This document shows positions 3,674 to 43,220 of a stretch of DNA of 64,000 nucleotides, one piece after another. Origin of the DNA: an uncultured Actinomycetes bacterium (GTDB taxonomy: Bacteria > Actinomycetota > UBA4738 > HRBIN12); contig CAWFKP010000006.1 in assembly GCA_963816425.1 (NCBI GenBank), forward strand, positions 272,278-336,277. The letters are read 5' to 3'. The position numbers were made by a program, and so were the translations under genes. Within the stretch, counting starts at the first letter, position 1. Each line of letters begins with the position of its first letter. The notes under the pieces were generated by a model, which worked only from the letters and a program-made list of their open reading frames with translations, did no database searches and was not told where the DNA came from.

Positions 3674-3718
3674 GTCGTCCTGCGGCGGCGGATCGCCGTC
3701 GGGTAGCGTCCCTGCTGC

Positions 3719-8981: not shown

Positions 8982-9797
8982 ATGAGCTCGAAGGACCGCT
9001 CGGTGCGCGACAGCGCGTGGTATCGGGCGATCGTGCACCCGGGCAAGGTCTACGGTGGCGAGATCTACCGGTCTGCGATCCGGCACCCACCCCCCACGAC
9101 GCCGCGCGGGCGGGCGATGACCTCGTTCCAGAACTTCTTCCTCCACATCTACCCGGTGAAGGTGCCCCGCGAGGTGATCAAGGGTCGGACAACACTGCGG
9201 CTCGGGTTCATCGCGGCGGTCCTGTACGGCATCCTGTTCGTCTCGGGGACCTACCTGATGTTCTTCTACCGCCCGACCGTTCCCGACGCGTACTTCAGCA
9301 TGCACGACCTGTCGACGACGGTGGCGTTCGGCAGCTTCGTCCGCAACGTTCACCGATGGTCGGCACACCTGATGGTGATCGTGGTGCTCGCGCACCTGAT
9401 CCGGGTCTTCTACGCCGGGGCGTATCGGCGGCCGCGCCAGTTCAACTGGGTGATCGGGGTCGTGCTGCTGGTGCTGACGCTGCTGATGTCGTTCACCGGC
9501 TATCTGCTTCCGTGGGATCAGCTCGCGTTCTGGGCGATCACGGTCGGCACCAACATCGCCGGGTACGTGCCGGTGATCGGTACCCAGGTTCGCAACTTGC
9601 TGCTCGGCGGTCCCGAGGTCTCGAGCGCCGCGCTGCTGCGCTTCTACGTCTTGCACATCTACTTCTTGCCCGCCCTGATCACCGTGCTCGTCGCGGTGCA
9701 CATCTGGCGGGTTCGGAAGGACGGATTCGCCGTCAGCGACCGCACGAAGGTGTCGGCCGCCCAGTCCGGACAGGAGCACGCCGATGCCCACGAATGA
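8982..9797 (+). CDS. qcrB: cytochrome b6-type subunit (N-terminal half of split cytochrome b)
   Basis: Track ORF; 13-nt gap after previous gene with GGGGGA RBS. Conserved cytochrome b helices A-D ([36 protein letters not shown]); ends after helix D. Confidence 0.85.
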
Positions 9798-10293
9798 ACC
9801 TGAGCCTCGCTACCGACTCCTCGGGGTCGTCGAGAAGGAGGTCGAGCAGAAGGACCGGCTGGACCCGCACGACGAGGTCTTCACGTGGCCGCACCTGCTC
9901 GTGCGCCATGTGGTCGTCGCGGCCGGCACGATCGCGGTCGTCTTTCTGCTCGCCATCCTGTTCGACGCCCCGTTGAAGGAGATCGCGAATCCGAACGCCA
10001 CGCCAGAGGTGGCGAAGGCCCCGTGGTACTTCGCCGGCCTGCAGGAGCTGCTGTCCCATTTCGCGCCGATGGTGGCGGGCATCCTGATCCCGGGAGCAGC
10101 CCTCGTGTGGCTGTTCGCACTGCCGTACATCGACCGTGCGTCGGACTACCGCGCGCGCAGCCGGAAGTTCGTCGTCACGGTGTTCACGATCGTCGCCGTG
10201 CTCGCGCTCCTGCTCACCATCGTCGGCACCTTCTTCCGAGGACCCGGCTGGAGCTGGGTCCCGCCGTGGCAGCACTCGTACGCGGAGTTCTGA
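9784..10293 (+). CDS. cytochrome bc complex subunit IV (C-terminal half of split cytochrome b, PetD-like)
   Basis: Overlaps cyt b6 gene by 14 nt; [12 protein letters not shown] matches the PEWY region of subunit IV; 3 TM helices. Confidence 0.8.
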
Positions 10294-10294
10294 G

Positions 10295-10909
10295 ATGGAC
10301 GAGCACACCGACGAACACGACGCAGCGGGCGACGCACCGGTCGACCGCCGACGGTTCCTGAACGGTACGTGGAAGGCGCTCGGCGTGGTGTTGATCGCCG
10401 AGGGCGCGTGGACGAGCTACGACATCCTGCGCCCCGACACGAGTCAGGGGGCGGGCTCGGTGATCGATGCCGGACCCGTGAGCGACTACGCAGAGGAAGG
10501 CACGGTCAAGTACTTCCTCAGCGGACGTTTCTACGTCACGCAGTTCCAGGGCGGGCTGCGTGCGCTGTATCAGAAGTGCCCGCACCTCGGGTGCCGCGTG
10601 CCCTTCTGCGACAGCTCCGGCCGGTTCGAATGCCCGTGCCACGGCAGCTACTACAACGTGATCGGGGAGTACATCCAGGGACCCGCGCCGCGCGGGATGG
10701 ATCGGTTCAAGATCTCGATCAGTGACGACGGACGGGTGCTGGTCGACACCGCGACCGTCCTGCCCGGGCCCGCGAAGGGCGTTCTGACCGGGCCCGCCGA
10801 CGCAGCGGGTCCGTCGTGCACGTCGGCGGAGGGAGAGGCCGTGGCGACGCCGAGCGCCACGCCGAACGCCCCCGATGCCAGCGCCTCGCCCTCCGGTGGT
10901 ACGCCGTGA
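10295..10909 (+). CDS. qcrA: Rieske [2Fe-2S] protein with twin-arginine signal
   Basis: ATG 10295 two nt after previous stop. RRRFLNG Tat motif. CPHLGC...CPCHGS Rieske boxes. Confidence 0.85.
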
Positions 10910-11364
10910 GCAAGGCCCCAGCGGACGACCCCGTCCTCGCTCGCTCGACCCGAAGGTGGCAGCGGGTCGGTGTCTGGCTGCTCCTGATCCTCGTGCTGTC
11001 CTTCCCGCTCTACAAGCTGACGGAGGGGTCACGGCGAGCCTCCGCCGCGCTGCTGCAGCAGCAGGCGCAGATCGCGACGGGGACGCAATTGTGGGCCGCG
11101 AACTGCGCCGTCTGCCACGGCCCGATGGGGGAGGGCGTCAGCGCTCCCGCGTTGAACTCCCAAGAGTTCCTCACGACGGTCACCGACGCGCAGATACGCG
11201 ACATCATGCGCGGCGGCATCCCGGGCACCGAGATGCCCGCCTGGCTCAACGACTACGGCGGACCGCTGACCGAGGAGCAGATCCAGGCACTCGTTGTGTA
11301 CATCCGCTCGTGGGAGGCGACGGCGCCGGCGCGCCCGGACTGGCGCACGCCGAGCGGCGGATAG
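10906..11364 (+). CDS. membrane-anchored monoheme c-type cytochrome
   Basis: GTG 10906 overlaps Rieske stop (GTGA). One TM helix ([14 protein letters not shown]) then CAVCHG heme-binding motif. Confidence 0.75.
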
Positions 11365-11373
11365 GAGATCGAG

Positions 11374-13437
11374 ATGGCACGCGGATCATTGCTGCGCACG
11401 CGAGCTCGCGGCTTCGTGATGCTCGCGGCCGTCCTCGCCCTGGGGAGCTGCTCCGTGCAGTCGCAGGGGATCGGCGAGACGGTCGCGATGATCCCGGGAT
11501 ACGCGGGCGGCGGAGCAGCTCCGAGCGGGCCGCCGATCCAGGGCTACGACGCGCCGATCCCCGTCATCCAGGTCGGGCTTTCCGAGACCGACGCCACCCA
11601 CATGGCGATCGACCTGTCCCAGCCCTTTGCCCCCCAGGGCAAGGTGTCGTTCCTCGTGACCAACAACGGGGCCAAGAAGCACGAGTTCGTGGTGCTTGCC
11701 ACCGACACCGCGGCGGCTTCCTTCCCGATCGTGAGCTTCGAAGGTGAGGCCAACCGGATCGATGAGGACGCCAAGGGTGTGACCAACGTCGGGGAGACAG
11801 GCGACATGGAACCGGGTGCGGTGATGATGCTGACCTTGGACCTGGCCCCGGGCCACTACGCCGTGGTCTGCAACCTCCCCGGGCACTACGCGATGGGCAT
11901 GCACCAGGACTTCTTCGTCACGCCCACCGCCTCCACGCCGGTCAGCGTCGGGCTGTCCGAGACCGACGCCACCCACATGGCGATCGACCTGTCCCAGCCC
12001 TTTGCCCCCCAGGGCAAGGTGTCGTTCCTCGTGACCAACAACGGGGCCAAGAAGCACGAGTTCGTGGTGCTTGCCACCGACACCGCGGCGGCTTCCTTCC
12101 CGATCGTGAGCTTCGAAGGTGAGGCCAACCGGATCGATGAGGACGCCAAGGGTGTGACCAACGTCGGGGAGACAGGCGACATGGAACCGGGTGCGGTGAT
12201 GATGCTGACCTTGGACCTGGCCCCGGGCCACTACGCCGTGGTCTGCAACCTCCCCGGGCACTACGCGATGGGCATGCACCAGGACTTCTTCGTCACGCCC
12301 ACCGCCTCCACGCCGGTCAGCGTCGGGCTGTCCGAGACCGACGCCACCCACATGGCGATCGACCTGTCCCAGCCCTTTGCCCCCCAGGGCAAGGTGTCGT
12401 TCCTCGTGACCAACAACGGGGCCAAGAAGCACGAGTTCGTGGTGCTTGCCACCGACACCGCGGCGGCTTCCTTCCCGATCGTGAGCTTCGAAGGTGAGGC
12501 CAACCGGATCGATGAGGACGCCAAGGGTGTGACCAACGTCGGGGAGACAGGCGACATGGAACCGGGTGCGGTGATGATGCTGACCTTGGACCTGGCCCCG
12601 GGCCACTACGCCGTGGTCTGCAACCTCCCCGGGCACTACGCGATGGGCATGCACCAGGACTTCTTCGTCACGCCCACCGCCTCCACGCCGGTCAGCGTCG
12701 GGCTGTCCGAGACCGACGCCACCCACATGGCGATCGACCTGTCCCAGCCCTTTGCCCCCCAGGGCAAGGTGTCGTTCCTCGTGACCAACAACGGGGCCAA
12801 GAAGCACGAGTTCGTGGTGCTTGCCACCGACACCGCGGCGGCTTCCTTCCCGATCGTGAGCTTCGAAGGTGAGGCCAACCGGATCGATGAGGACGCCAAG
12901 GGTGTGACCAACGTCGGGGAGACAGGCGACATGGAACCGGGTGCGGTGATGATGCTGACCTTGGACCTGGCCCCGGGCCACTACGCCGTGGTCTGCAACC
13001 TCCCCGGGCACTACGCGATGGGCATGCACCAGGACTTCTTCGTCACGCCCACCGCCTCCACGCCGGTCAGCGTCGGGCTGTCCGAGACCGACGCCACCCA
13101 CATGGCGATCGACCTGTCCCAGCCCTTTGCCCCCCAGGGCAAGGTGTCGTTCCTCGTGACCAACAACGGGGCCAAGAAGCACGAGTTCGTGGTGCTTGCC
13201 ACCGACACCGCGGCGGCTTCCTTCCCGATCGTGAGCTTCGAAGGTGAGGCCAACCGGATCGATGAGGACGCCAAGGGTGTGACCAACGTCGGGGAGACAG
13301 GCGACATGGAACCGGGTGCGGTGATGATGCTGACCTTGGACCTGGCCCCGGGCCACTACGCCGTGGTCTGCAACCTCCCCGGGCACTACGCGATGGGCAT
13401 GCACCAGGACTTCTTCGTCACGCCCCAGGCGGCATAG
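11374..13437 (+). CDS. lipoprotein with five tandem cupredoxin (type-1 copper) domains
   Basis: LALGSCS lipobox. Five 125-aa repeats each with H(EF)...C-N-L-P-G-H-x-x-M-G-M ligand pattern of blue-copper sites (KHEFVV...VVCNLPGHYAMGMH). Confidence 0.8.
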   Translation: MARGSLLRTRARGFVMLAAVLALGSCSVQSQGIGETVAMIPGYAGGGAAPSGPPIQGYDAPIPVIQVGLSETDATHMAIDLSQPFAPQGKVSFLVTNNGAKKHEFVVLATDTAAASFPIVSFEGEANRIDEDAKGVTNVGETGDMEPGAVMMLTLDLAPGHYAVVCNLPGHYAMGMHQDFFVTPTASTPVSVGLSETDATHMAIDLSQPFAPQGKVSFLVTNNGAKKHEFVVLATDTAAASFPIVSFEGEANRIDEDAKGVTNVGETGDMEPGAVMMLTLDLAPGHYAVVCNLPGHYAMGMHQDFFVTPTASTPVSVGLSETDATHMAIDLSQPFAPQGKVSFLVTNNGAKKHEFVVLATDTAAASFPIVSFEGEANRIDEDAKGVTNVGETGDMEPGAVMMLTLDLAPGHYAVVCNLPGHYAMGMHQDFFVTPTASTPVSVGLSETDATHMAIDLSQPFAPQGKVSFLVTNNGAKKHEFVVLATDTAAASFPIVSFEGEANRIDEDAKGVTNVGETGDMEPGAVMMLTLDLAPGHYAVVCNLPGHYAMGMHQDFFVTPTASTPVSVGLSETDATHMAIDLSQPFAPQGKVSFLVTNNGAKKHEFVVLATDTAAASFPIVSFEGEANRIDEDAKGVTNVGETGDMEPGAVMMLTLDLAPGHYAVVCNLPGHYAMGMHQDFFVTPQAA
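11563..13437 (+). repeat. 5 x 375-bp direct tandem repeat; copies 2-5 read as identical at nucleotide level
   Basis: Identical sequence blocks starting 11938, 12313, 12688, 13063. Identical antisense ORFs in track at 375-bp period (11886, 12261, 12636, 13011). Copy 1 differs only at its 5' end, copy 5 at its last ~12 nt. Confidence 0.9.
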
Positions 13438-13462
13438 ACCCACTGCGGGACAAGCCCGGAGG

Positions 13463-13491
13463 TTGACACCCGGCCGCGGCGCCCGCACACT
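13463..13491 (+). promoter_or_regulatory. putative promoter (TTGACA-N17-CACACT) positioned for a leaderless transcript starting at the leader-peptide ATG
   Basis: TTGACA at ~13463-13468 and a weak -10 about 17 nt downstream; leader ATG 13501 has no SD, consistent with leaderless initiation. Confidence 0.3.
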
Positions 13492-13500
13492 GTTGTGGCT

Positions 13501-13551
13501 ATGACGAACGCAGCTGTGCTCGGACGCAGCGTCCTCGTACTTATCGCCTAG
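13501..13551 (+). CDS. ilv operon leader peptide MTNAAVLGRSVLVLIA (attenuation control)
   Basis: 16-codon ORF rich in Val/Leu/Ile codons (gtc ctc gta ctt atc) ending TAG 13549-13551 immediately before the antiterminator stem. Confidence 0.55.
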   Translation: MTNAAVLGRSVLVLIA

Positions 13552-13587
13552 GCGCGGGGGGCCCACGGGCCCGCAGACCCCCGCGCC
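13551..13587 (+). promoter_or_regulatory. antiterminator hairpin of ilv attenuator (GGCGCGGGGG / CCCCCGCGCC, 10-bp perfect stem)
   Basis: 13551-13560 pairs perfectly with 13578-13587. Shares CCCCCGC with the terminator stem, so the two structures are mutually exclusive. Confidence 0.5.
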
Positions 13588-13617
13588 AGATGCCCTCCGC
13601 CCAGCGGGGGGCTTTTT
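13578..13617 (+). terminator. intrinsic terminator of ilv attenuator (CCCCCGC...GCGGGGG followed by GCTTTTT)
   Basis: Stem 13578-13584 / 13604-13610, U-tract 13613-13617. Located between leader peptide and first structural gene. Confidence 0.55.
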
Positions 13618-13681
13618 GTATCCCGTAGCGTGCCACCGGGCCTCGACCAGCCGGGGACCCAGACAGAGAGGAGAACCACCG

Positions 13682-13999
13682 ATGCGATACGAGTTCGAAC
13701 GAGACGGCACGGTCGTCGCCAGCGTCCTGTGGGAGGGTCCCGGCCAGGTCAGCGTCGACGCGATCGATAACAGCACGCGCGCGACGGTGGACCGCTACCT
13801 CTCATCCGAGGTCGTGTACCTGGGCGGCGGGTTCGACGTCGGCGACGAGCAGGTTCCCGACGTGTTGCAGATGCGCCGGCGTGACTGGACGCCTTGGGAG
13901 TTCGAGCGGGCGTGTCGCAACCTCGCACATCGGCTGCAGGCGCAGGTGCGTCGCGTGGAGACCGGGCCCGTGGAGGCGCGCGAGGTGGTCGCGGGATGA
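13682..13999 (+). CDS. hypothetical 105-aa protein, first gene after the ilv attenuator, translationally coupled to ilvB
   Basis: Strong RBS GAGAGGAG 9 nt upstream of ATG 13682. High GC3 codon bias. Stop TGA 13997-13999 overlaps ilvB ATG 13996 (ATGA). No recognisable domain. Confidence 0.55.
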
Positions 14000-15738
14000 C
14001 GTTCAAGGGAGCGGACGCCGTTCTCAAGGCGCTCGAGCAGGAGGGTGTCGAGGTCATCTTCGGCATCCCGGGCGGCGCCAGCATGCCGATCTACGACCCG
14101 CTCGTGGACCGCTCACCGATCCGGCACGTCCTCTGCCGGCACGAGCAGGGCGCCGGACACGCGGCCGAGGGCTACGCGTGGGCCACCGGCAAGGTGGGCG
14201 TGTGCATGGCGACGAGCGGGCCTGGCGCGACGAACCTCGTCACGCCGCTGGCCGACGCGAAGATGGATTCGGTGCCGATCGTCGCGATCACCGGACAGGT
14301 GCCGACGCCGGTGGTTGGCAACGACGCTTTCCAGGAGGCGGACATCACGGGCATCACGATGCCCGTCACGAAGCACAACTTCCTGATCAAGGACGCCGCC
14401 GACATCGTGGAGACGATCCGCGAGGCGTTCCACATCGCGCGCTCGGGCCGCCCCGGCCCGGTGCTGGTTGACCTTCCCAAGGACGTGCTGAACGCCGAGA
14501 CCACCTACACCTGGCCCGAGAAGATCAACCTGCCCGGCTACAAGCCCACCACGAAGGGCAACAACCGTCAGGTGAGCGAGGCCGTGAAGCTGATCCTGGC
14601 CGCCTCGCGACCGGTGCTCTACGTCGGCGGCGGCGTGATCAAGGCGAACGCCTCCGAGGAGCTGATGCAGCTGGCGACGATCGGCAAGCTCCCGGTCGTC
14701 ACCACGCTGATGGCGCGCGGCGCCTTTCCCGACTCCCACGAGCTGTGCCTGGGGATGCCGGGCATGCATGGGAACTACACGGCGGTCACGGCGATGCAGC
14801 GCGCCGATCTGCTGGTCGCGCTCGGCTCGCGCTTCGACGACCGGGTCACGGGCAAGCTGTCGGGGTTCGCCCCGGACGCGAAGATCGTGCACGTCGACGT
14901 CGATCCGGCCGAGATCGGGAAGAACCGGTTCGTCGACGTGCCGATCGTCGGCGACTGCAAGGACGTCATCGCGAAGCTGGCCGTCGAGCTCGGCAAGCGA
15001 CAGGAAGGCGCGGGCGCGCCCGATCGGTCGGCGTGGCTCGCGCAGCTGGAGGATTGGCAGACGAAGTACCCCCTTCGCTACGGCCAGGAATCCGACACGC
15101 TGAAGCCGCAGTACTGCGTCGAGCGCCTGCGGCACTTCGCCGACGACGACACGATCCTCGTCGCGGGCGTCGGGCAACACCAGATGTACGCGGCTCAGTA
15201 CTGGCGGTTCGAGCGCCCGCGCCATTGGATCAACTCCGGTGGCCTCGGCACGATGGGCTTCGCGGTGCCCGCCGCCATGGGCGCCAAGGCGGGTCAGCCC
15301 GACAAGCGCGTGGTCGCGATCGACGGAGACGGCTGCTTCCAGATGACCGCCCAGGAGCTCGCCACCAGCAACACGGAGAAGATCCCATTCGTGACCGCGA
15401 TCTTGAACAACGGGTACCTCGGCATGGTGCGCCAGTGGCAGGAGCTGTTCTTCGACGAGCGGTATTCGGGGGTGTACCTCGATCCCGACGTGCCGAACTA
15501 CGTGAAGCTCGCGGAGGCGTACGGCGCCGTCGGTCTGCGGGTGGATTCTCCTGAGGAGGTCGACGCCGCGATCGAGAAGGCCTACGCGATCGAGGATCGA
15601 AGCGTCGTGATCGACTTCCGCACCGACCCGCGCGAGGGCGTCTTCCCGATGGTGCCGGCGGGCGCCTCGAACGACGACATCATCCTCGGGCCGGAGTTCG
15701 CGCCGCACGAGGTCCCGGGGGAGGCTCCGATCGTATGA
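13996..15738 (+). CDS. ilvB: acetolactate synthase large subunit
   Basis: [36 protein letters not shown]... ThDP-dependent AHAS family; internal ATG of track ORF 13894..15738. Confidence 0.92.
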
Positions 15739-16259
15739 CGAACTTCTTGCACACCATCTCCGTGCTGGTCGAGGACCGACCGGGCGTGCTTACCCGGATC
15801 GCCGGGCTGTTCGCCGCGCGCGGGTACAACATCGAGTCGCTCGCGGTCGGCGCCACCGAGACGCCGGGCGTCTCGCGCATGACGATCGTTGTCGACGTCG
15901 AGGACAAGCCGCTCGAGCAGGTGACGAAGCAGCTCAACAAGCTGATCAACGTGATCAAGATCCTCGAGCACGATCAGGGCTCGGCCGTCGAGCGCGAGCT
16001 GATGCTGGTGAAGGTCCGCTCCGAGGGCGACAACCGTGCGCGCATCATGGAGGTCGCCGATGTGTTCCGCGTGAACGTCGTCGATGTGACGAGCGGCACC
16101 CTGACGCTCGAGGCCGCCGGCAAGCCCGAGAAGCTGGAGGCGCTGCTGTCGCTGCTCCGTGATTTCGGGATCGTCGAGCTCTCACGCACCGGGCGGATCG
16201 CGCTCGGCCGCGGCGATCGCGGCATCAAGGACCGTTCGCTCAAGGTCGCCAACGCCTGA
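15735..16259 (+). CDS. ilvN: acetolactate synthase small (regulatory, ACT-domain) subunit
   Basis: ATGA overlap with ilv[39 protein letters not shown] typical IlvN. Confidence 0.9.
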
Positions 16260-16299
16260 GCGGTGGATCCACCCGACGCACCAGGAAGGAACCGACGAG

Positions 16300-17309
<1,010 letters not shown>

Positions 17310-17310
<1 letters not shown>

Positions 17311-19018
17311 TGACCACCGCAGACCCCGACGTACCGGGCTCAAGTAGCGAAGCGGTAGCCCGTGAGATGCACCGGGCTCAAGTAGCGAAGCGGTAGCCCG
17401 TGAAGATGCACCGGGCTCAAGTAGCGAAGCGGTAGCCCATGCAGATGCACCGGGCTCAAGTAGCGAAGCGGTAGCCCGCAAAGACGTCGTCCGGATCTTC
17501 GACACCACGCTGCGCGATGGCGAGCAGGCGCCCGGGATCGCGCTGAGCCGGGCCGAGAAGGTCGAGATCGCCGAGCAGCTCGCGCGACTGAAGGTCGACA
17601 TCCTCGAGGCCGGGTTCCCGATCTCGGGGCAGGGCGAGTTCGAGGCCGTCCGCGAGATCGCCGATTCCGTGCGCGGGCCGGTGATCGCGGCGCTCGCGCG
17701 CACCGCGACCGGCGATATCGAGCGCGCCGCCGAGGCGCTCAAGGGCGCCGAGCATTGGCGGATCCATACGTTCATCTCGACGAGCGACGTCCAGCGCGAG
17801 TCCATGTTGAAGATGAGCTACCAGCAGGTACTCGACGCCATCGAGGCGAACGTGACCCTCGCCAAGGGCTACACGGAGGACGTCGAGTTCAGCGCGCAGG
17901 ATGCCACCCGCACCGAGTTGGCGTTCCTGCTCGAGTGCTACCGCCTCGCGGTGCGCTGCGGCGCGACCACGATCAACGTGCCCGACACGGTCGGCTACGC
18001 GACCCCGACGGAGTTCGGCGAGCTGATCCGGATCGTGCGCCAGGAGGTGCCCGACGAGGTCGTGATCTCGACCCACTGCCACAACGACCTCGGGCTGGCC
18101 GTCGCCAACGCGCTGGCCGGCATCGAGAACGGCGCACGCCAGGTGGAGGTGGCGGTCAACGGGATCGGCGAGCGGGCTGGGAACTGCTCGCTCGAGGAGA
18201 TCGCGATGATCGTGCGTACCCGTCGCGCGCACCTCGGCGTCCAGCACGGGCTGAACGTCAAGGAGATCACGCGCACGTCCCGGCTGGTCGCGATGACCAC
18301 GGGCTACAGCGTGCAGCGGAACAAGGCGGTCGTCGGCACGAGCGCGTTCGCGCACGAGAGCGGCATCCATCAGCACGGGGTGCTCGCCAACCGCGCGACC
18401 TACGAGATCATGGATCCCGTCGAGATCGGGCTCGAGGGGAACCAACTGGTGCTCGGCAAGCACAGCGGGCGCCACGCGTTCGTCGACGCCCTGGACAAGC
18501 TCGGCATCACGCTGGACGACGCGGCCCTCAACCGCGCGTTCACGCGGTTCAAGGACCTGGCCGATCGCAAGGTGCAGCTGACCGACCAAGATCTGTCCGC
18601 GATCGTCGCAGAGGAGCTCGGGGCGACGGACGAGGACGCGCTGGTGCTCGAGTCGCTGCAGATGGGCGGCGGCACGCACCTCCAGCCTCGGGCCACGGTC
18701 CGACTACGCAGAGGCGAGGAGGTGATCGAGGAATCCGCGATCGGCGACGGCTTGATCGACGCGGCGATGGGGGCCATCGCGCGTGCCGCCGAGGTCGAGG
18801 GTCGACTCGCGAGCTTCCACGTGTCCGGGGTCACCGAGGGCACCGACGCGCTCGGTGACGTGGTCGTCCAGCTGGACATCGACGGTCGCCGTGTGACGGG
18901 CCGCGGAGTCGCGACCGACGTCGTCGAGGCGAGCGCCCGCGCATACCTCGCGGCGGTGAACCGCGCCCTGCAGGTCCAGGCCAAGGACGCCGGCCAGACC
19001 AACGAGGTCACGCCGTGA
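17310..19018 (+). CDS. leuA: 2-isopropylmalate synthase; 5' end disrupted by a 1-nt frame change in the first tandem-repeat copy (uninterrupted frame only from 17366; next canonical start GTG 17669)
   Basis: RIFDTTLRDGEQAPGIALS... HxH/LeuA catalytic region is in frame 2 but no ATG/GTG/TTG lies between stop 17363-17365 and the RIFDTTLRDGEQ box. ATG 17310 overlaps ilvC stop (TGATG) and would be in frame if copy 1 were 39 bp like copies 2-3. Confidence 0.75.
17333..17478 (+). repeat. 38/39-bp direct tandem repeat (3 full copies + partial 4th), unit ACCGGGCTCAAGTAGCGAAGCGGTAGCCCGTGA(A)GATGC
   Basis: Copies at 17333-17370 (38 bp), 17371-17409 (39), 17410-17448 (39), 17449-17478 (partial). Encodes DAPGSSSEAVAxx 13-aa units in the leuA frame. 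Confidence 0.85.
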
Positions 19019-20069
19019 CGGACCGCTCCCACACGATCGGGGTGATCCGCGGCGACGGTACCGGCCCGGAGGTGGTCGGCGAAGGTCTCAAGGTGCTCGA
19101 CGCCGTTCGCGACTTCGACGTGACCCTCGTGGACTTCGATCTCGGCGCCGATCGATACCTGCGCACGGGGGATGTGCTTCCCGACGAGGAGCTCGCGCGG
19201 ATCGCCGAGATGGACGCGGTGTTCCTCGGGGCTGTCGGCGACCCGCGGGTGCGGCCCGGCATCCTGGAGCGCGACCTGTTGCTCAAGATCCGGTTCCAGC
19301 TCGACCAGTGGGTGAACCTGCGCCCGGTCGTGCGGTATCCGGGCGTGGCCACGCTCGTGCCGAGCCACACCGAGGACGACGTGAACTTCGTGGTGGTTCG
19401 GGAGAACTCCGAAGGGCTCTACAGCGGCGCGGGCGGCTTCCACCGGAAGGGCACGCTGCAGGAGGTCGCGGTGCAGGAATCGATCAACACGCGCCACGGG
19501 GTCGAGCGGATCGTGCGCTACGCGTTCGAACTGGCCGCTTCCACCGCTCGGCGCGGCACGCTCACGCTCGTGCACAAGACCAACGTGCTGACGTTCGCCG
19601 GCGATCTGTATCAGCGGGTGGTCGATGAGGTCGCCGGGAGTTCCCGCAGGTCCAGACCGACTACGTGCACGTCGACGCCGCGTGCATCTACTTCCTGGAC
19701 GCGCCGGGGCGGTTCGACGTCATCGTCACCGACAACATGTTCGGCGACATCATCACGGACCTCGGGGCGATGATCCAAGGCGGGATGGGCATCGCCGCCG
19801 GCGGCAATATCAACCCCGACGGCGTGTCGATGTTCGAGCCGATCGGCGGCACCGCGCCGAGCGAGACGGGCAAGGGCACGATCAACCCACTGGCCGCGAT
19901 CGGCGCGATGGAGATGCTGCTGCGCCAGTTGGGCGAGCCGGAGGCGGCCGCAAGGATCGACCGCGGCGTCCGAGCGGCGACCGGCCGGATGAAGAGCATG
20001 CGCGCGGGCGAGATGGGGTTCTCCACGGCGCAGGTCGGCGATCTCGTGGTGGAGGGCGCGACGGCATGA
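19015..20069 (+). CDS. leuB: 3-isopropylmalate dehydrogenase, frameshifted in this sequence at a G-run (~19636-19638)
   Basis: Track ORFs 19015..19773 and 19665..20069 together give a full LeuB (MTDRSHTIGVIRGDGTGPEV... / ...EFPQVQTDYVHVDAACIYFLDAPGRFDVIVTDNMFGDIITD). Restored by GGG->GGGG. ATGA overlap with leuA stop. Confidence 0.8.
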
Positions 20070-21655
20070 GCGAGGTGTCCGCCGTCCGCGTCGAGCTCTA
20101 CGACACGACGCTTCGCGACGGCGCGCAACAAGCGGACCTGTCCTACACGGTCGAGGATCGGCTGCGCATCCTGCACAAGCTCGACCAGGTCGGCTTCCCC
20201 TTCATCGAAGGGGGGTGGCCGGGCGCCAACCCGCGCGACACGGAGTTCTTCCAGCTCGCGATGAAGGAGACACTCCAGCATGCGGAGCTGACCTCGTTCG
20301 GCATGACCCGCCGCGCCGGGGAGCGAGCCGATGCGTCGCAGGCCCTGCGCGATCTGCTGGAGGCCGGCACCGAGGTGGTCTGCCTGGTGGGCAAGGCGTG
20401 GGACCTGCACGTGACCGAGGCCCTGCGCACCGACCTCGTCGAGGGCGTCGCGATGGTGCGCGATTCGGTGACGTTCCTCCGCGCACAGGGTCGCCGGGTG
20501 TTCTTCGACGCGGAGCACTTCTTCGACGGCTACCGAAGCGATCCCGCCTTCGCCATGCAGGTGATCGCCGCGGCGGAGGAGGCCGGCGCCGAACGGCTCG
20601 TGTTGTGCGACACGAACGGGGGCATGCTGCCGTTCGACATCGCGGACATCGTGCGAGCCGTCGGCGACCAGGCGTCGGCACCCCTGGGGATCCACGTGCA
20701 CAACGACGCCGGGTGCGCGGTGGCGAACTCGCTGGTGGCAGTCGATGCCGGCGTGCTCCAGGTGCAAGGCACCGTCAACGGCTACGGCGAGCGCACTGGC
20801 AACGCCGACATCGTCCCGATCACGGCCGATCTCATCCTGAAGATGGGCGTGACCGACGCGCTCCCCGACGGGTCGGTCGCGCACCTGACCGAGCTGGCGC
20901 GCTACGTCGCCGAGATCGCGAACCTGTCGCCGGAGGCGCGGCAGCCCTATGCGGGCAGATACGCGTTCACGCACAAGGCGGGGCTGCACACCAGCGGCGT
21001 CGCCCGAGTGTCCCGGGCCTACGAGCACGTCGCCCCCGAGTCGGTGGGCAACCGGCGCGGGGTGGTGGCGTCGGACTACAGCGGCGGCGCCTCGATCCGG
21101 ATGAAGGCCGAGGAGTTCGGCCTCGATCTCGGGGAGGCCGCGATCCCCGCCGCGGTCGAGCAGCTGAAGGAACGAGAGGCCCGCGGCTACACCTTCGACA
21201 TCGCGGAGGCGTCCTTGGAGCTGCTGCTCCGTCGCGCCGACGGTTGGGCGCAGGCCTTCTTCGAGGTCGAGAGCTACCGGGTCCATGTGGAGGAGCGCGC
21301 GGGCGACGAGCCCTTGGCCGAGGCGACGGTCAAGGTGGTGACCGAGGGGACGCGACATATCGAGAGCGCCGAGGGCCAGGGTCCCGTGGGCGCCTTGGAC
21401 AACGCGCTGCGGAAGGCGCTGACCAACGACTACCCGCAGCTCGACGACATGGAGCTCGAGGATTTCCGCGTCCGGGTGCTCGATCGCAGCGTGGGAACGG
21501 GCGCGGTCGTGCGCGTGCTGATCGACATGTCCAACGGCGAGGGCGAATGGACCACGGTCGGCGTGAGCGAGAACATCATCGAGGCCTCGTGGGAGGCGCT
21601 CGTGGACGGCTACACGTACGGCCTGTTGCATCCGCGGGAGCACGTGGAGGACTGA
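20066..21655 (+). CDS. cimA: citramalate synthase / LeuA-type-2 family (isoleucine via citramalate)
   Basis: ATGA overlap with leuB stop. VELYDTTLRDGAQQ...GGWPGANPRDTEFF signature of the CimA/LeuA_allo subfamily, distinct from the leuA above. Confidence 0.65.
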   Translation: MSEVSAVRVELYDTTLRDGAQQADLSYTVEDRLRILHKLDQVGFPFIEGGWPGANPRDTEFFQLAMKETLQHAELTSFGMTRRAGERADASQALRDLLEAGTEVVCLVGKAWDLHVTEALRTDLVEGVAMVRDSVTFLRAQGRRVFFDAEHFFDGYRSDPAFAMQVIAAAEEAGAERLVLCDTNGGMLPFDIADIVRAVGDQASAPLGIHVHNDAGCAVANSLVAVDAGVLQVQGTVNGYGERTGNADIVPITADLILKMGVTDALPDGSVAHLTELARYVAEIANLSPEARQPYAGRYAFTHKAGLHTSGVARVSRAYEHVAPESVGNRRGVVASDYSGGASIRMKAEEFGLDLGEAAIPAAVEQLKEREARGYTFDIAEASLELLLRRADGWAQAFFEVESYRVHVEERAGDEPLAEATVKVVTEGTRHIESAEGQGPVGALDNALRKALTNDYPQLDDMELEDFRVRVLDRSVGTGAVVRVLIDMSNGEGEWTTVGVSENIIEASWEALVDGYTYGLLHPREHVED

Positions 21656-21700
21656 CCAGGCAGGCGTCGCGCATCCGATCGTGCGCTACGTCGTCGATCT

Positions 21701-22897
21701 CTAAGGGGTCGGGTCGCTCGCGTGCGCGGCGAGCAACCGGACGACGCGATCCTCGATGTCCTTGGCCTTGTATTCGTCCATGCCGCTGGTCAGCAGCGAG
21801 AACTCGATCCAGGTGTCGGCCGGGTCGCTCCAGACCCAACCGGTCAGGGCGGACACGTTGTCGAGGGTGCCGGTCTTCGCGCGTATGCGCACCTTCGCGA
21901 GCCTGTCCTTGAGCGTGCCCTGACCGCCGTCGGGCAATGCCATCCGAAGCGTGCCCACCCAGGGCTGCGCACCGGCGAACCACAGCATGCGCACCATACC
22001 GCCCACGGTCTGCCTGTTCGCATACGACAGGCCCGAGGCGTCGTGGCACGTGCCCGCGACCCCGTGCGTCGCCTCGAAGGCACAGATCGCCGAGGCCGCG
22101 TTCGCGATCGTGCCGGCGGCGCCGTCGTCGACCGCGAGGGCCTTGCCGAGCACCTCCGCGGAGAAGTTGAGCGACCGGCGATCCATGTGGCGCACGAGCG
22201 TGCGCATCGGTTGCGAGGTCAGCGTCGCGACCTCGGTGAGACCGGCGACCGCGCCGCCGGCGACCGCCGAGTCGCCCACCGAGACGCCGAGGTCGCGGAG
22301 CGCGTGCGTCAGGGAGTCAGCCGCGCGTCGCTCCGGATCGTGGATATGGATGCCGGTCGGTCCGACGTTGCCGTGGAACGTCAGCGCGGTCGGCAGCGGG
22401 ATGTAGTCGGCGGGGAAGTAGTCCTTCCATCCAGGGGCGAACCAATCGTGGTGGAACGGTCCGGTGACCCCGACCACCCGTCCGCCGATGTGGCGCACGC
22501 CGGATACCCAGATCAGATGCGCCAGATGCGTGATCCGGGCCTCGCTGACCTCCGGGTCGCCCTGCCCGCGCAGGAACAGGTCGCCCTCGATGACTCCGCT
22601 CGGGTCGACGCCGAGGGACATCGCTCGGAGCTGGAAGGTCCGTGCGGGGCCGAGCTGGTCGAAAAGAGCCATGGAGAGCAGGAGCTTCTCGTTGGACGCA
22701 GGGGCCCGCGCGCGGCCGACCCGGTGCCGATACCAGGCCTCGCCGTCGTTGCCGACCATCACCGACATCGGATGCCCGGCCACGATCCCGTTCAGCCGGT
22801 ACACCCACCGGGGAGTGGCTGCCTGGGCCGACCCAACACCTGTGACCAGCACGAACACAGCCACGAGGACCGCGAGGGGGAAGGAGCGTGATCGCAT
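21701..22897 (-). CDS. D-alanyl-D-alanine carboxypeptidase/endopeptidase (PBP4, S13 family)
   Basis: Signal peptide; SNEK (SxxK) active-site motif in PASNEKLL; track ORF. Confidence 0.8.
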   Translation of the reverse strand: MRSRSFPLAVLVAVFVLVTGVGSAQAATPRWVYRLNGIVAGHPMSVMVGNDGEAWYRHRVGRARAPASNEKLLLSMALFDQLGPARTFQLRAMSLGVDPSGVIEGDLFLRGQGDPEVSEARITHLAHLIWVSGVRHIGGRVVGVTGPFHHDWFAPGWKDYFPADYIPLPTALTFHGNVGPTGIHIHDPERRAADSLTHALRDLGVSVGDSAVAGGAVAGLTEVATLTSQPMRTLVRHMDRRSLNFSAEVLGKALAVDDGAAGTIANAASAICAFEATHGVAGTCHDASGLSYANRQTVGGMVRMLWFAGAQPWVGTLRMALPDGGQGTLKDRLAKVRIRAKTGTLDNVSALTGWVWSDPADTWIEFSLLTSGMDEYKAKDIEDRVVRLLAAHASDPTP

Positions 22898-25794: not shown

Positions 25795-26897
25795 TCAGGC
25801 GAGGTCGGCCACGAAGGAGCGCATGAACGCGGCGAGTTGCTCCACGCCCGCCATCGGCATGGCGTTGTAGATGGAGGCGCGGATCCCGCCGACGCTGCGA
25901 TGGCCCTTGAGCTCGACCATGCCGGCCGCGGCCGCCTCCGCCACGAACCGGCTCTCGAGCTCCTCGGTCGGCAGGCGGAACGTGACGTTCATCAAGGAAC
26001 GCGCCTCGCGTCGCGCGTGGCCTCGATAGACGTCGGGGAACTCGTCGATGACGTCGTAGAGCAGCGCCGCCTTCGCGCGGTTGCGCTGCAACATCGCGTC
26101 GAGCCCGCCGACCTCGTCGCGCAGCCACCTCGTGACCAGCATCAGCACGTAGATCGAGAACACCGGGGGCGTGTTGTACAGCGACCCATGCTCGGCGTAG
26201 GTGCGGTAGTCGAGCATCGTCGGCAGGCCATCCGGCACGGCCGTGAGCACGTCGTCGCGCACGATCGCCACCGTCACCCCTGCCGGGCCCGCGTTCTTCT
26301 GCGCTCCGGCGTACAGCACCGCGTACCGGTCGACGTCGACCGGACGCGACAGGAAGTCGCTCGAGCAGTCCGCAACGAGCCGCACGTGATCCGGCATGGT
26401 CGGCGTGTCCGCGTACTCGACGCCCTGGATCGTCTCGTTCGTCGTGACGTGCACGTAGGCCGGATCGGCCTCGATCGATGCCCGCAGCTCGTCGGTGTCG
26501 GGCACCCGGACGTATCCCTCGTCCTCGCCCGACCAGGCGAGGCGGGCGAGCCCCACGCGGGCCGCCTCGGCGATCGCCTTCGCGCCCCACGAGCCGGTCA
26601 CGACGTAGTCGCGGGCGGCCCCGAGCTCCGAAGCAGATTCATCGCGACCATCGCGAACTGCATCGTGGCGCCGCCCTGCAGGAACAGGACGCGATGACTC
26701 GTCGGGATCGCAAGCAGCGATCGCAGGTTCGCCTCGGCCTCCTCGATCACCCCCGTGAACCAGGCGCCGCGGTGCGAGACCTCCAGCGGCGAGGCGCCGA
26801 CCCCCGGCAGCGCGACCAGGTCGCCCTGCGCCTGCTGGAGCACGGAGAGCGGCAGGACGCCCGGCCCTGCCGCGAAGTTCACGAGACGCTCGGTCAC
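25795..26897 (-). CDS. serC: phosphoserine aminotransferase, frameshifted at a G-run ~26610-26620
   Basis: Track ORFs 26598..26897 (MTERLVNFAAGPGVLPLSVLQQA..EVSHRGAWF) and 25795..26601 (..TGSWGAKAIAEA..) are the two halves of SerC. Confidence 0.8.
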
Positions 26898-26926
26898 GGA
26901 ACCAGGCTACCGAGCGGCGCCGCCCC

Positions 26927-27403
26927 TCAGGCGCCCGGCTTGTACACCATCAGCCACAGGAGGATGGCCAGCCCGGCCATCCCGGTCGTCGCGATCACGC
27001 GGCCGCGGGGTCCGTGGACCAGCGCGTCGAGGTCCGTGTCGGTCGTCGGGTACGAGCCGTCGGCCCAGCGAGTGGTCGCCTCGCGGATCGAGCGCATGTA
27101 CGGACCGGCCAGCGCGCTCATGGCTCCCGCGGTGGCGAGCAACACGACGATCGCGCCCCAGAGCCACCATCCGCGCGAGAACCACGAGCCGTCGATGCCC
27201 GCGATCACGCCGAACAGCGTGAGGAATCCGAGCGAGGCGTACATCGGGGTGCCCGCCATCCGCGACTGCTCCGCGCGGTCGAACATCTTCTCGCGGTCGG
27301 GGAACGCGGGCGGGATGGCGAACAGCGCCCAGATCTGGACCCCGTGAAACAACAGGAACGATGCGACGCCGACGACGTGCAGGAAGACCCACAGGTCGAT
27401 CAT
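26927..27403 (-). CDS. DUF2269-like integral membrane protein
   Basis: Internal ATG of track ORF 26927..28108. MIDLWVFLHVVGVASFLLFHGVQIWALFAIP; 4 TM helices; upstream part of the track ORF is low-complexity nonsense. Confidence 0.6.
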   Translation of the reverse strand: MIDLWVFLHVVGVASFLLFHGVQIWALFAIPPAFPDREKMFDRAEQSRMAGTPMYASLGFLTLFGVIAGIDGSWFSRGWWLWGAIVVLLATAGAMSALAGPYMRSIREATTRWADGSYPTTDTDLDALVHGPRGRVIATTGMAGLAILLWLMVYKPGA

Positions 27404-30293: not shown

Positions 30294-30308
30294 GAGACTG
30301 GCTCGCGG

Positions 30309-32180
30309 ATGGATGCCGCGTCACTCCGCGCCCGCCTCGCCGAGGGCCCACTGCTCGCCGACGGGGGCATGGGAACCGCGCTGATCGACGCCGGCGTGCC
30401 CGTCGATGCCTGTATGGAGCTCCTCAACGAACGGGAGCCGGCGCGGGTGGCGGGCATCCACGCAGCCTTCGTCGGCGCCGGCGCCCGGCTCCTGCTCACC
30501 AACACGTTCGGCGCGAACCGCTTCCGGCTCGACCACCACGGGCTGGCCGATCGTGTGGGGGCGCTGTGCGCCGCCGGCGTCACGCTCGCGCGCGCGGCCG
30601 GTGCAGCGTTGGTGGCGGGCTCGATGGGTCCTTTGGGCGTGCGCCTCCAGCCCTACGGTCGGGTGCCCGCCGAGGAGGCGTTCGACGCCTACCGGGAGCA
30701 GGCCCTGGCGCTCGCGACCGCCGGCGTCGACCTTCTCGTGATCGAGACGCAGACGGACGTGCGCGAGCTCGAGCAGGCGGTGGCCGCCGCCCGCGACGCC
30801 GCGCCGGGCGTGGCACTCCTGGCAAGCGCCACCTTCACCCGCGACGACCGCACGTTGCTGGGCGACACACCGGAGGCCGTCGCCGGACGGCTCATCGAGC
30901 TCGGCGTAGACGCCTTCGGCGTCAACTGCGGCGAGGGACCGGCACAGGCGCTGCGGATCGCGCGGCTGCTCGCCCCGATCGCCGGCGCGGCCGGCGTGCC
31001 CCTGCTCGCGCGTCCGAACGCGGGCGGCCCGACCGAGGTCGGTGGCCGCTTCGTCTACCCGGCCACCCCCGAGTACGTGGCCGAGGTGGTCCGCGACCTG
31101 CTCGACGAGGGTGTGTCCGTCGTGGGCGGATGTTGCGGCACCGGCCCGGCCCATACCGCGGCCATCGCGAACGAGCTCCGCGATCGGCGACCTCGGGCAC
31201 CGATCGCGTTCCCGTCACCGGCGCCGCCCGGGGTGGGGCCCGCGCCCTCCAGCGTCGCGCCCACCGCCCTGGAGGCCGCGATCGGCGCAGGCGAGCTGGT
31301 CATCACCGTCGAGATGGAGCCACCCCGGTCCTTCAATGCGGCGCAGCTGGTCGCCGCCGCCCAGACGCTGCGTGACGCGGGGGCGACTGCGATCGACGTC
31401 GCGGACTCGCCGATGGCCAAGATGCGGATGAGCGCCTGGGCGGCCTGCCGACTCGTGCACGAGCGGGTCGGGATCGAGACCGTGCTGCATTTCCCGACGC
31501 GAGGCCGCAACGTGCTGCGGCTCCAAGGCGACCTGCTCGGCGCGCACGCGCTCGGCATCCGGAACCTCTTCGTGTGCGTCGGCGATCCGGTCACGATCGG
31601 CGACTACCCCCACGGGTCCAACGACGTCGACGTGACCGCGACCGGGCTGCTGCAGCTGATCACCGAACAATTCAACGCCGGGGTCGATCGGTCGGGATCA
31701 TCGATCGGCGAGGCCACGTCGTTCTTCGCCGGCGCCGCGGCCTCGCCCGCGGCCGCCGACCTCGACCGGGAGGTGCGGCTGCTCGCCCGGAAGGCACAGG
31801 CCGGCGCTCGGTTCGTCTTGACCCAGCCCGTCTATGCCATCGAGCCGTTGCGGGCGCTGCGGGAGGCCTACGAGCGGCAGACGGGCGCACCCTTGCGGGT
31901 GCCGATCATCGCGGGTGTGCTGCCCCTCGTGTCGTCGCGCCACGCGACGTTCCTGCACAACGAGGTGCCGGGCATCGAGATCCCCGAGGGCGTGCAGTCG
32001 CGGATGCGCGAGGCGGGCGAGAGCCCCGAGCGGGCGTGGGCGACCGGGTTGGCCATGGCGACGGAGCTCGCCGCCGGCCTTCGGGCTGCGGGGGTGGCCG
32101 GGATCTATGTGATGCCGCAGTTCGGGCGCTACGACCGGGCCGCCGACCTCGTGGAGGCCGTTCGAGCTTTCGCATCGTGA
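30309..32180 (+). CDS. bifunctional homocysteine S-methyltransferase / 5,10-methylenetetrahydrofolate reductase (YitJ-like)
   Basis: N-terminal Hcy-binding domain (GGMGTALIDAGV..). C-terminal MTHFR domain (VTIGDYPHGSNDV...). Confidence 0.8.
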   Translation: MDAASLRARLAEGPLLADGGMGTALIDAGVPVDACMELLNEREPARVAGIHAAFVGAGARLLLTNTFGANRFRLDHHGLADRVGALCAAGVTLARAAGAALVAGSMGPLGVRLQPYGRVPAEEAFDAYREQALALATAGVDLLVIETQTDVRELEQAVAAARDAAPGVALLASATFTRDDRTLLGDTPEAVAGRLIELGVDAFGVNCGEGPAQALRIARLLAPIAGAAGVPLLARPNAGGPTEVGGRFVYPATPEYVAEVVRDLLDEGVSVVGGCCGTGPAHTAAIANELRDRRPRAPIAFPSPAPPGVGPAPSSVAPTALEAAIGAGELVITVEMEPPRSFNAAQLVAAAQTLRDAGATAIDVADSPMAKMRMSAWAACRLVHERVGIETVLHFPTRGRNVLRLQGDLLGAHALGIRNLFVCVGDPVTIGDYPHGSNDVDVTATGLLQLITEQFNAGVDRSGSSIGEATSFFAGAAASPAAADLDREVRLLARKAQAGARFVLTQPVYAIEPLRALREAYERQTGAPLRVPIIAGVLPLVSSRHATFLHNEVPGIEIPEGVQSRMREAGESPERAWATGLAMATELAAGLRAAGVAGIYVMPQFGRYDRAADLVEAVRAFAS

Positions 32181-42438: not shown

Positions 42439-43170
42439 TCAGTGGCCGCTGTTGCCGTGCGTCCCGCTGTTGCCGTGGGTCCCGCTGTTGCCGTGCGTCC
42501 CGCTGTTGCCGTGCGAAGCTTGCTTCGCGGCCTTGGCGGCGTCGTGCGCGGCCTGTCGATCGGCCTTGGCCGCCTCGCGCGCCGCCGCCGCCTCGTCGTG
42601 TGCCGCATCGTGCAGGGCCTTGCGCTCCTGGTTGGCCAGCAGATGCTCGAGCGCGTTGACGAGCCCGGGTGCCTGCGGGTTCTTGATGCAGTTGGCGAGC
42701 ACGTGGCTGATCGCGTTGTCCAGCCCGGTGACAGTCGCCGAGGTCTCGGTGCTCGGCGCGGCGGTGGGATCGATGCCCGCCGCGGTGTTGCACTCCGCCT
42801 CGCGATCGACCGGGGGCGTGTCGGTGACCGTCGGAGCCTCGGTCTCGGTCTCCACCGGGTCGGGGGCCTCTGCATCGCCGGCGTCGTCCTCGCATGTCGG
42901 GTCCGGCTGGAGCGAGGGGTCGGTGACGGGATCCGTCTGCTCGTCCCCAGAATCCTCCGAGGGGTCGACCGATCGATCGACGGACGGGTCGACCGACGGA
43001 TCGACGGACGGGTCGCCCGAGGGGTCGACCGACGGCTGCACGCTGCAGCTGGGGTCCGGGGCCGGATCCGTGCCGGTCGAGGCCAACGCGGCCCCGGCGC
43101 CGAGGACCAGGGCGAGTGTGGCGAGGGCTGCGAGGAGACGGAGGCGCGTTGACGTCATCATGCGAACCAT
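42439..43170 (-). CDS. secreted low-complexity repeat protein (VDPS repeats; C-terminal HGNSGT x4)
   Basis: Internal ATG (MVRMMTSTRLRLLAALATLALVLGAGAALA signal peptide) of track ORF 42439..43332. Confidence 0.55.
   Translation of the reverse strand: MVRMMTSTRLRLLAALATLALVLGAGAALASTGTDPAPDPSCSVQPSVDPSGDPSVDPSVDPSVDRSVDPSEDSGDEQTDPVTDPSLQPDPTCEDDAGDAEAPDPVETETEAPTVTDTPPVDREAECNTAAGIDPTAAPSTETSATVTGLDNAISHVLANCIKNPQAPGLVNALEHLLANQERKALHDAAHDEAAAAREAAKADRQAAHDAAKAAKQASHGNSGTHGNSGTHGNSGTHGNSGH
42445..42516 (-). repeat. 18-bp tandem repeat x4 (CCCGCTGTTGCCGTGCGT) encoding HGNSGT units
   Basis: Four consecutive near-identical 18-mers read directly; in frame within gene 42439..43170. Confidence 0.7.
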
Positions 43171-43220
43171 ATCGGCCGATCCAACGGTAGCCCTTGAGGA
43201 CCAGTTCGCTCCGCCGCGTT

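Follow-up and report, generated by a model that had tools for sequence, protein, structure and literature searches.

The gene leuA, which encodes 2-isopropylmalate synthase, opens with four tandem copies of a short repeat in a 64,000-nt stretch of DNA from an uncultured Actinomycetes bacterium (contig CAWFKP010000006.1; this whole stretch is referred to below as the window). Judged from its sequence, the unit of this array is a member of a dispersed family of hairpin-forming repeats and not a variable-number tandem repeat (VNTR) specific to leuA. The explanation that best accounts for the observations as a whole, and to which we assign a probability of roughly 0.7, is that a dispersed hairpin element was amplified within leuA and is translated through, and that the single A missing from the first copy, which breaks the reading frame in the assembly, is an error.

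The tandem array and the reading frame as assembled

Tandem Repeats Finder placed the array at positions 17333-17478 (146 nt), with a period of 39, 3.8 copies, 96% matches and the consensus ACCGGGCTCAAGTAGCGAAGCGGTAGCCCGTGAAGATGC. Its 30-nt core, ACCGGGCTCAAGTAGCGAAGCGGTAGCCCG, begins at 17333, 17371, 17410 and 17449, which gives spacings of 38, 39 and 39 nt; this core had no further site in the 64-kb window when up to three mismatches were allowed, and a match was found in none of 100 shuffles. The array starts 23 nt 3' of the ATG that overlaps the ilvC stop, each unit opens with GAY-GYA-CCG, and GAC-GTC-GTC lies directly 3' of the last copy. The features of the locus are the following.

16300-17310, + strand: ilvC (ketol-acid reductoisomerase, 336 aa), an open reading frame (ORF) whose orthologue in the related loci L205 and L082 carries KARI_N and KARI_C.
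17290-17295, + strand: GAGGAG, 14 nt 5' of ATG 17310, read as a Shine-Dalgarno-like sequence with a putative function.
17310-17312, + strand: conserved leuA start codon, in a TGATG overlap with ilvC; the same start is present in L205, L081 and L165 (MTTADP[DE]VPGSSSEAVA...).
17333-17370, + strand: repeat copy 1, 38 nt, the frameshift site, one A short after 17365 (GA-GATGC).
17335-17362, + strand: hairpin of copy 1, with stem CGGGCT/AGCCCG and a 16-nt loop, CAAGTAGCGAAGCGGT, containing GCGAAGC, as given by the single-unit fold and the covariation of the family.
17371-17409, + strand: repeat copy 2, 39 nt, in the LeuA frame (…PGSSSEAVARED…).
17410-17448, + strand: repeat copy 3, 39 nt (…PGSSSEAVAHAD…), with one core mismatch.
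17449-17478, + strand: repeat copy 4, the 30-nt core only, followed by the original flank AAAGACGTCGTCCGG.
17373-17400, 17412-17439 and 17451-17478, + strand: hairpins of copies 2, 3 and 4; in copy 3 the outermost pair is lost (C/A).
17366-19018, + strand: LeuA reading frame (2-isopropylmalate synthase), open from just 3' of the frameshift.

Where copies 2 and 3 have ...CCCGTGAAGATGC or ...CCCATGCAGATGC, copy 1 has ...CCCGTGA-GATGC, so that a single A is absent from GTGA-GATGC in comparison with GTGAAGATGC. The ilvC stop, TGA at 17308-17310, shares a base with the ATG at 17310-17312, and the frame of this ATG is a 28-codon ORF that ends at TAG 17394-17396, out of frame with the body of LeuA. 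The LeuA frame itself opens at 17366, directly behind TGA 17363-17365; from there it runs as DAPGSSSEAVAREDAPGSSSEAVAHADAPGSSSEAVARKDVVRIFDTTLRDGEQ up to the stop at 19018, with the catalytic box RIFDTTLRDGEQ at 17492-17527. Its earliest ATG, GTG or TTG is GTG 17669, inside the catalytic barrel, and in the search for alternative in-frame starts the only candidates left before it were the non-canonical ATC 17495 and a CTG in the catalytic box. As assembled, the gene is therefore not an uninterrupted ORF from a usable start.

The first-pass annotation of this DNA had described tandem 38/39-bp copies at the 5' end of leuA, a first copy of 38 nt that puts ATG 17310 out of frame, and a LeuA frame devoid of ATG, GTG and TTG before GTG 17669, all of which were borne out by the repeat search, by direct reading and by the ORF analysis. 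It had also proposed that one added A would restore an N-terminal extension bearing the repeats. This holds as well: once the missing A is supplied the array consists of four in-frame tandem copies, and close homologues start at the ATG overlapping the ilvC stop.

The repeat unit belongs, by sequence, to a dispersed family

A collection of metagenomes was scanned with a 24-nt core pattern, GGCTCNNNNAGCGAAGCGGTAGCC, in which 20 positions are fixed. The pattern matched at least 120 soil-metagenome stretches, of which only a handful were leuA. Among the matches listed, de-duplication left 136 distinct contexts, most of them (112) in non-coding DNA or on a gene boundary; the others are the LeuA N-terminus (11) and the interior of other ORFs (13). 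Intragenic in-frame copies were found in DnaE (L123, L125), TopA (topoisomerase I, L196), CarB (carbamoyl-phosphate synthase, L100) and RdgB/HAM1 (L124), while four further copies inside ORFs lie in the opposite orientation. The TopA copy is read as GSSSEAVA, in the same frame as in LeuA; CarB holds two copies that are read in a different frame, as GSGGLKERSGSPP, and CarB homologues with 92-93% identity to the L100 protein are without the insert.

The element also occurs within a structured RNA. In L160 (4703-4816), L095, L104 and L181 it sits between the two halves of a thiamine pyrophosphate (TPP) riboswitch, in the variable P3 loop, with up to three copies at a period of 34 nt in L095. With the element in this place, the Rfam alignment covers the 3' half of the riboswitch only and scores 40.3 bits, below the gathering score of 54.3. 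Stems are longer in many copies of the family (GGGGTCCGGGGGGCTC...GAGCCCCCCGG), and these copies stand in direct arrays; in each of the 36 multi-copy arrays the copies are repeated directly, at periods of 31-57 nt. In the LeuA lineage the nucleotide core, CGGGCTC[A/G]AG[C/T]AGCGAAGCGGTAGCCC, is almost invariant, and it keeps the A-ending codons TCA, GAA and GTA, which are rare in a genome where the GC content of third codon positions (GC3) in coding DNA is ~0.9.

These contexts bear directly on the simplest alternative, namely that the array is an ordinary coding VNTR that evolved locally in leuA and resembles other sequences by coincidence. Its units do keep the frame and differ in number from strain to strain, and a coding VNTR exists in the leuA of Mycobacterium tuberculosis (PMC2704214). 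However, the 20 fixed bases and the same hairpin architecture recur in at least 120 unrelated contexts, where we estimate that chance would produce ~1 match in the whole collection, and we find this alternative scarcely credible. The earlier view of the array as a leuA coding VNTR thus survives in part: the unit is in frame and varies between 0 and 4 copies, but it is not specific to leuA, its core being present in at least 120 contigs and mostly outside genes.

No matching family was found in Rfam, either for window positions 16800-17900 at E values up to 10 or for 12 element-rich loci at gathering thresholds, and a search with the peptide translated from the array gave no match at E values up to 10. 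Literature searches with the core sequence on both strands found no paper, and the hairpin element is apparently undescribed so far.

Copy number varies among LeuA relatives

Searched against protein sequences, the repaired LeuA matched thousands of 2-isopropylmalate synthases from uncultured Actinomycetota, the best of them 95-96% identical, and the N-termini of 120 homologues were compared. These N-termini (for example that of P0003) place the conserved LeuA start at window ATG 17310. The GSSSEAVAR module, of 12-13 residues, always lies between DP[DE]V and VRIFDTTLRDGEQ, and its number is variable: many homologues have none (MSDPDVVRIFD), P0003, L081 and L205 have one, L084 has two, L082/L083 and L165 have three, and the window has four. 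Within the set of 120, one module was present in 18, two in P0014 and three in P0004, and the remaining 100 showed no recognisable motif, the unit being wholly absent or decayed. At the level of the locus DNA, in-frame arrays of 3 x 36 nt are present in L082 and L083, which come from two independent samples, as well as in the leuA of L165, a further relative, and an array of 2 x 39 nt is present in L084.

The variation extends to very close strains. L205, a 351-kb ENA contig (ERZ25039490 contig_61215) found via the window IlvN protein, has 97-98% DNA identity to window positions 9737-22370, yet it carries a single unit, together with an intact 530-aa LeuA and an intact LeuB, so that copy number is polymorphic within effectively one species. 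A comparison of repeat number in related strains, which the first-pass annotation had proposed, therefore does reveal polymorphism.

An AlphaFold2 model of LeuA, built with 43 homologues, was of modest overall confidence (mean predicted local distance difference test score, pLDDT, of 67). In this model the repeat-encoded residues 1-35 have a pLDDT of ~33 and are without secondary structure, and the first strand of the barrel corresponds to residues 41-46, VRIFDT. The insert thus lies in an N-terminal tail that is probably disordered, a setting in which elements of this kind can persist.

Hairpin structure, covariation and placement

In this family a conserved 16-nt loop is closed by a GC stem whose length varies; the loop contains GCGAAGC, a classic motif of very stable DNA mini-hairpins (PMC13037366). 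Covariation was assessed in an ungapped alignment of 148 distinct copies over a 10-bp stem, in which the four inner pairs are fixed by the search pattern. Pairing was present in 83.6% of the stem cells, compared with 72.0% after shuffling (none of 500 shuffles reached the observed value), and double-sided changes numbered 182 in these copies versus 94 in the shuffles. The covariation score was 0.250, against 0.102 when shuffled and at most 0.12 when the partners were slid, and the six outer pairs, at which GC, CG, UA and AU replace one another, account for the signal. Compensatory stems also occur outside the pattern-biased set, with GGCCT/AGGCC in L018 and GGTCT/AGACC in the leuA copy of L023, and in the latter the change alters the peptide and keeps the pairing. 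Single units folded as DNA gave -6.9 kcal/mol for the leuA type and -15.2 kcal/mol for the long-stem type (z = -4.1). The RNA fold of the whole array was not significantly better than that of shuffles (z = -1.78), and it pairs different copies together.

In the ilvN-ilvC spacer of L018 (1846-1960), the GGCCT/AGGCC copy is followed by a second hairpin with the loop GCGGAGC, and a hairpin pair of this kind recurs 5' of other genes in L156, L163, L183, L192, L133, L179 and L180.

With the element taken as '+', the flanking genes were oriented (+,+) in 60 cases and (-,-) in 4. In 31 of 70 cases the same-strand gene on the 5' side terminates ahead of the core, the median distance from its stop to the core being 16 nt, and in 16 more of the 70 it stops at most 40 nt after the core. 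At L101 (476-540), and also in L117, L154, L135, L121 and others, the reading frame of the upstream gene continues across the element to a stop no more than 40 nt beyond it; in L101 this stop overlaps the next start (TGATG). In such cases the element would supply a C-terminal tail and the genes would be kept coupled, in the manner of a mycobacterial interspersed repetitive unit (MIRU).

The strong co-orientation with transcription, the covariation of the stem, including the compensatory change of the L023 leuA copy with its altered peptide, and the retention in the core of rare A-ending codons despite the high GC3 all invite the idea that selection keeps the leuA hairpins as functional RNA, acting in ilvC-leuA coupling, in mRNA stability or as a protein-binding site, with an adaptive copy number. 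We consider this possible but unlikely, because most LeuA homologues (100 of the 120) do without the motif, because the fold of the whole array does not stand out from shuffles and Rfam gave no match, and because the co-orientation could equally stem from a strand-biased mechanism of insertion. A bolder proposal, which we regard as a long shot, is that the hairpin is a functional strand-specific module whose GCGAAGC-containing loop is recognised either by an HUH-type single-strand transposase, which would spread it, or by an RNA-binding regulator. In a clade of uncultured soil Actinomycetota, copies would then have been set at the borders of genes and in protein or RNA loops that tolerate them, and the copy-number changes in leuA, together with a genuine 1-nt slip, would act as an on/off or tuning switch for leucine synthesis.

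The missing base is likely a consensus error

The leuA gene lies in a cluster ordered ilvBNC-leuA-leuB-cimA, in which the gene for the CimA-type synthase is the last member. The genes downstream of leuA are as follows.

19015-20069, + strand: leuB, split by a 1-nt deletion near 19635, with the Iso_dh profile in two frames and an indel relative to L205.
20066-21655, + strand: a second LeuA/CimA-type synthase, an intact ORF whose L082 orthologue carries HMGL-like, HCS_D2 and LeuA_dimer.

When ~40 ORFs of the window were surveyed against Pfam, three genes proved to be split by single-base frameshifts, namely leuA, leuB and a class-V (SerC-like) aminotransferase gene, while the remaining scanned genes cover their domains normally. 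In leuB, Iso_dh profile positions 1-205 fall in 19015-19770 and positions 207-324 in 19629-20066; the window reads gtcgc-cgggag at the site where L205, whose intact LeuB has 351 aa, reads gtcgcTcgggag. Contraction of a G run was ruled out as the leuB lesion by this comparison, the missing base being the T/C in GC[T]CGG. In the aminotransferase gene (25798-26949, - strand), profile positions 3-84 fall in 26601-26906 and positions 96-371 in 25798-26949, with the shift at ...CTTCGG-AGCTC..., near 26620.

L205 has lesions of its own. A total of 13 indel events separate the two sequences over 12.5 kb, among them 1-nt insertions in L205, an extra G each, in cimA at 10801 (window 20648) and in a peptidase-S13 gene at 12157 (window 22003). 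In the window both of these genes are whole, whereas gene calling on L205 gives short or fragmentary versions of them. Several indels also split the SoxE-repeat gene of L205 into a number of short ORFs. As the insertions of L205 fall in genes that are intact in the window, both assemblies appear to be indel-prone, and two near-identical strains that break different conserved genes by 1-nt indels bear the signature of consensus errors and not of shared biology. The LeuA frame, moreover, has 95-96% identity to intact homologues with the HMGL-like (PF00682), HCS_D2 (PF22617) and LeuA_dimer (PF08502) domains, and the codon differences between the window and L205 are mostly synonymous in both leuA (22 synonymous, 5 non-synonymous) and leuB (17 synonymous, 6 non-synonymous), as expected under purifying selection. 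The naming of the contig also looks like that of a long-read assembler. It is thus quite likely, in our judgement, that the missing A of copy 1 is a consensus error and that the real leuA is intact. A sequencing error had been suggested in the first-pass annotation, and it is now the favoured reading in view of the two nearby single-base frameshifts and of the intact leuA and leuB of L205.

If the frameshift were real, leuA and leuB would have been inactivated recently, no LeuA would be made and the organism would be a leucine auxotroph or dependent on its neighbours. Two consecutive genes of one pathway are both broken, leuA offers no alternative start before the one inside the catalytic barrel, and the other scanned genes of the window are intact, so that errors are not everywhere. 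Against this, each gene has suffered one 1-nt deletion, with no stops or other damage; LeuA retains its high identity to intact homologues, with changes relative to L205 that are mostly synonymous; a third, unrelated gene carries the same type of lesion; and, as is typical of consensus errors, the sister contig L205 has its own 1-nt indels, reciprocally, in a different set of conserved genes. Real gene loss is, in our view, rather improbable.

Far less probable again is that the frame is restored in translation, either by a programmed -1 frameshift between 17366 and 17394 (copy 2 hairpin) or by a start at ATC 17495. A hairpin does lie directly 3' of the region in which the shift must occur, and ATC 17495 does precede the FDTTLRDGEQ box. 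However, the interval 17366-17394 contains no slippery heptamer of the form X XXY YYZ, and no relative has this arrangement, all of them being translated straight through; ATC, for its part, is a very poor initiator codon, and no Shine-Dalgarno sequence lies near position 17495.

Comparison with known repeat systems

Several features recall repetitive extragenic palindromic elements (REPs). Like these, which measure ~20-40 bp, the element is a short palindromic GC-rich stem-loop, and it is present in many dispersed copies that are mainly extragenic (112 of the 136 contexts), mostly just 3' of coding regions and between co-oriented genes, although the window itself holds the leuA array only. 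Both have a GTAG tetranucleotide, and intragenic REPs have been reported in replication and repair genes (Di Nocera et al. 2013, PMC3733652), where some copies also lie here (DnaE, TopA, RdgB). The differences lie in the loop, which here is long (16 nt) and conserved, and in the hosts, which are uncultured Actinomycetota, a phylum whose name is absent from the main text of the REP survey (PMC3733652). In addition, the GTAG of the element lies at the junction of the loop and the 3' arm, where its invariance is imposed by the search pattern, and not at the outer end of the palindrome as does the GTAG/CGTC tag of REPs, and instead of inverted dimers (head-to-head or tail-to-tail) all 36 arrays are direct.

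A second comparison is with the Rickettsia palindromic elements (RPEs), reportedly described by Ogata et al. in 2000. RPEs are ~100-150 bp long and are known only from Rickettsia, whereas the present element, which we liken to them by description, measures ~30-46 nt, belongs to high-GC soil actinobacteria and often stands in tandem arrays. RPEs (mentioned in PMC3733652 and PMC1166351) are likewise palindromic repeats that lie in frame in essential protein genes, where they are tolerated as extra peptide, as well as in RNA genes and in intergenic DNA. Here the in-frame insertions are in genes that stay intact, namely those for DnaE, TopA, CarB, RdgB and LeuA.

MIRUs, said to have been described by Supply et al. 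in 1997, look similar by description in being tandem repeats of ~40-60 nt in an actinobacterial operon, located at a start codon or gene junction, with coupling kept and a copy number that varies by strain. To our knowledge, a defined hairpin with a conserved loop is not a feature of MIRUs. They insert at start codons in such a way that translation stays coupled (PMC12548453). A MIRU, however, has its own short ORF coupled to the downstream gene, whereas here the repeat is fused in frame into LeuA.

The VNTR in M. tuberculosis leuA lies towards the C-terminal part of the gene, whereas the array described here is at the extreme N-terminus, and we know of no indication that the M. tuberculosis unit belongs to a dispersed hairpin family. 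The two have in common that they repeat in tandem and in frame within the gene for alpha-isopropylmalate synthase, with a copy number that varies between strains, but the M. tuberculosis unit is of 57 bp and those here are of 36 or 39 nt (PMC2704214). The precedent that the first-pass annotation saw in this VNTR accordingly holds for an in-frame repeat in leuA, and beyond that, with a different unit length and a likeness by description, it is an analogy only. Taken by analogy, then, the element is provisionally filed as a repeat that works like those of the REP, RPE or MIRU type and that departs from REPs in two of their defining features, the position of GTAG and the orientation of arrayed copies.

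A possible history of the leuA insertion

In the history that we favour, one copy of the element would have come to lie, in an ancestor of the lineage, between the codons for DPDV and VRIF in the N-terminal tail of LeuA, where it would have been read in its sole stop-free forward frame, as GSSSEAVA. The insert would have been tolerated because the tail is predicted to be unstructured. GACGT is present on both sides of the leuA insert and suggests a target-site duplication, although an ambiguous one, because the empty site, GACGTCGTCCGG, is internally repetitive. Loss, decay or tandem duplication would have followed independently in sublineages, in units of 36 or 39 nt. The element is flanked by short direct repeats, GAYGY, and slippage or unequal recombination between them may have given rise to both arrays and losses. 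In the strain of the window, translation would start at ATG 17310, coupled to ilvC termination, and run through the array, yielding a LeuA N-terminus ~39 residues longer than in one-copy strains. For the role of the family elsewhere, the leading options are REP-like hairpins at mRNA ends or selfish spread.

Several points weigh against an amplified dispersed hairpin whose missing A is an error. With respect to the family, the invariance of the 20 core positions was set by the search pattern and is no evidence of constraint. A family profile search (nhmmer) of the 64-kb window recovered only the four copies of leuA, and ~170 kb of relatives' loci yielded one further clear copy, in L018; that so few other copies exist in the lineage speaks against the ancestral insertion of a mobile copy, which we infer. 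Given this rarity, the leuA copy looks like an inherited relic that is occasionally amplified. The periods of 19 of the 31 non-coding arrays are divisible by 3, which weakens the argument for selection at the level of translation, and the notion that such periods are confined to coding arrays was dropped for this reason. With respect to the missing A, the call of an error rests on comparison between assembled sequences. All three frameshifted genes belong to amino-acid biosynthesis and lie within 10 kb, a clustering that could reflect real and very recent gene loss, and the other ~40 scanned ORFs look intact, which indicates that the error rate of the assembly is not extreme.

Other repeats and fused genes in the window

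Window positions 11572-13425 (+ strand), within an ORF at 11365-13437, hold 4.9 copies of a 375-nt unit that are 99% identical; the units encode tandem SoxE/cupredoxin domains in one 690-aa ORF, located 3' of cytochrome b/c genes. Short tandem repeats occur on the minus strand at 42446-42515 (18 nt x 3.9) and 42957-43035 (12/24 nt x 3-6), in an ORF at 42442-43455 that has no Pfam match and adjoins a large AAA/TPR STAND-like gene. Three genes of the window encode fused domains: homocysteine S-methyltransferase with methylenetetrahydrofolate reductase (MTHFR) at 30294-32177, an APH-type kinase with a class-III aminotransferase at 48945-51368, and an MFS transporter with a cyclic-nucleotide-binding domain at 3707-5371.

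Significance

For annotation, the evidence favours an intact leuA in an indel-prone assembly, whereas gene callers will truncate the window leuA to GTG 17669 or call it a pseudogene, and will treat leuB and the aminotransferase gene in the same way. The copy number of the repeat, which differs between strains that are 97-98% identical, is usable as a natural marker. More broadly, the element survives inside essential genes (those for DnaE, TopA, CarB and LeuA) and in a riboswitch loop, where the reading frame or the RNA fold tolerates it. Palindromic repeats that become parts of proteins make up a short list, to which the element adds a high-GC Gram-positive case. The repeat in leuA thereby exposes a hairpin element in abundant uncultured soil Actinomycetota.

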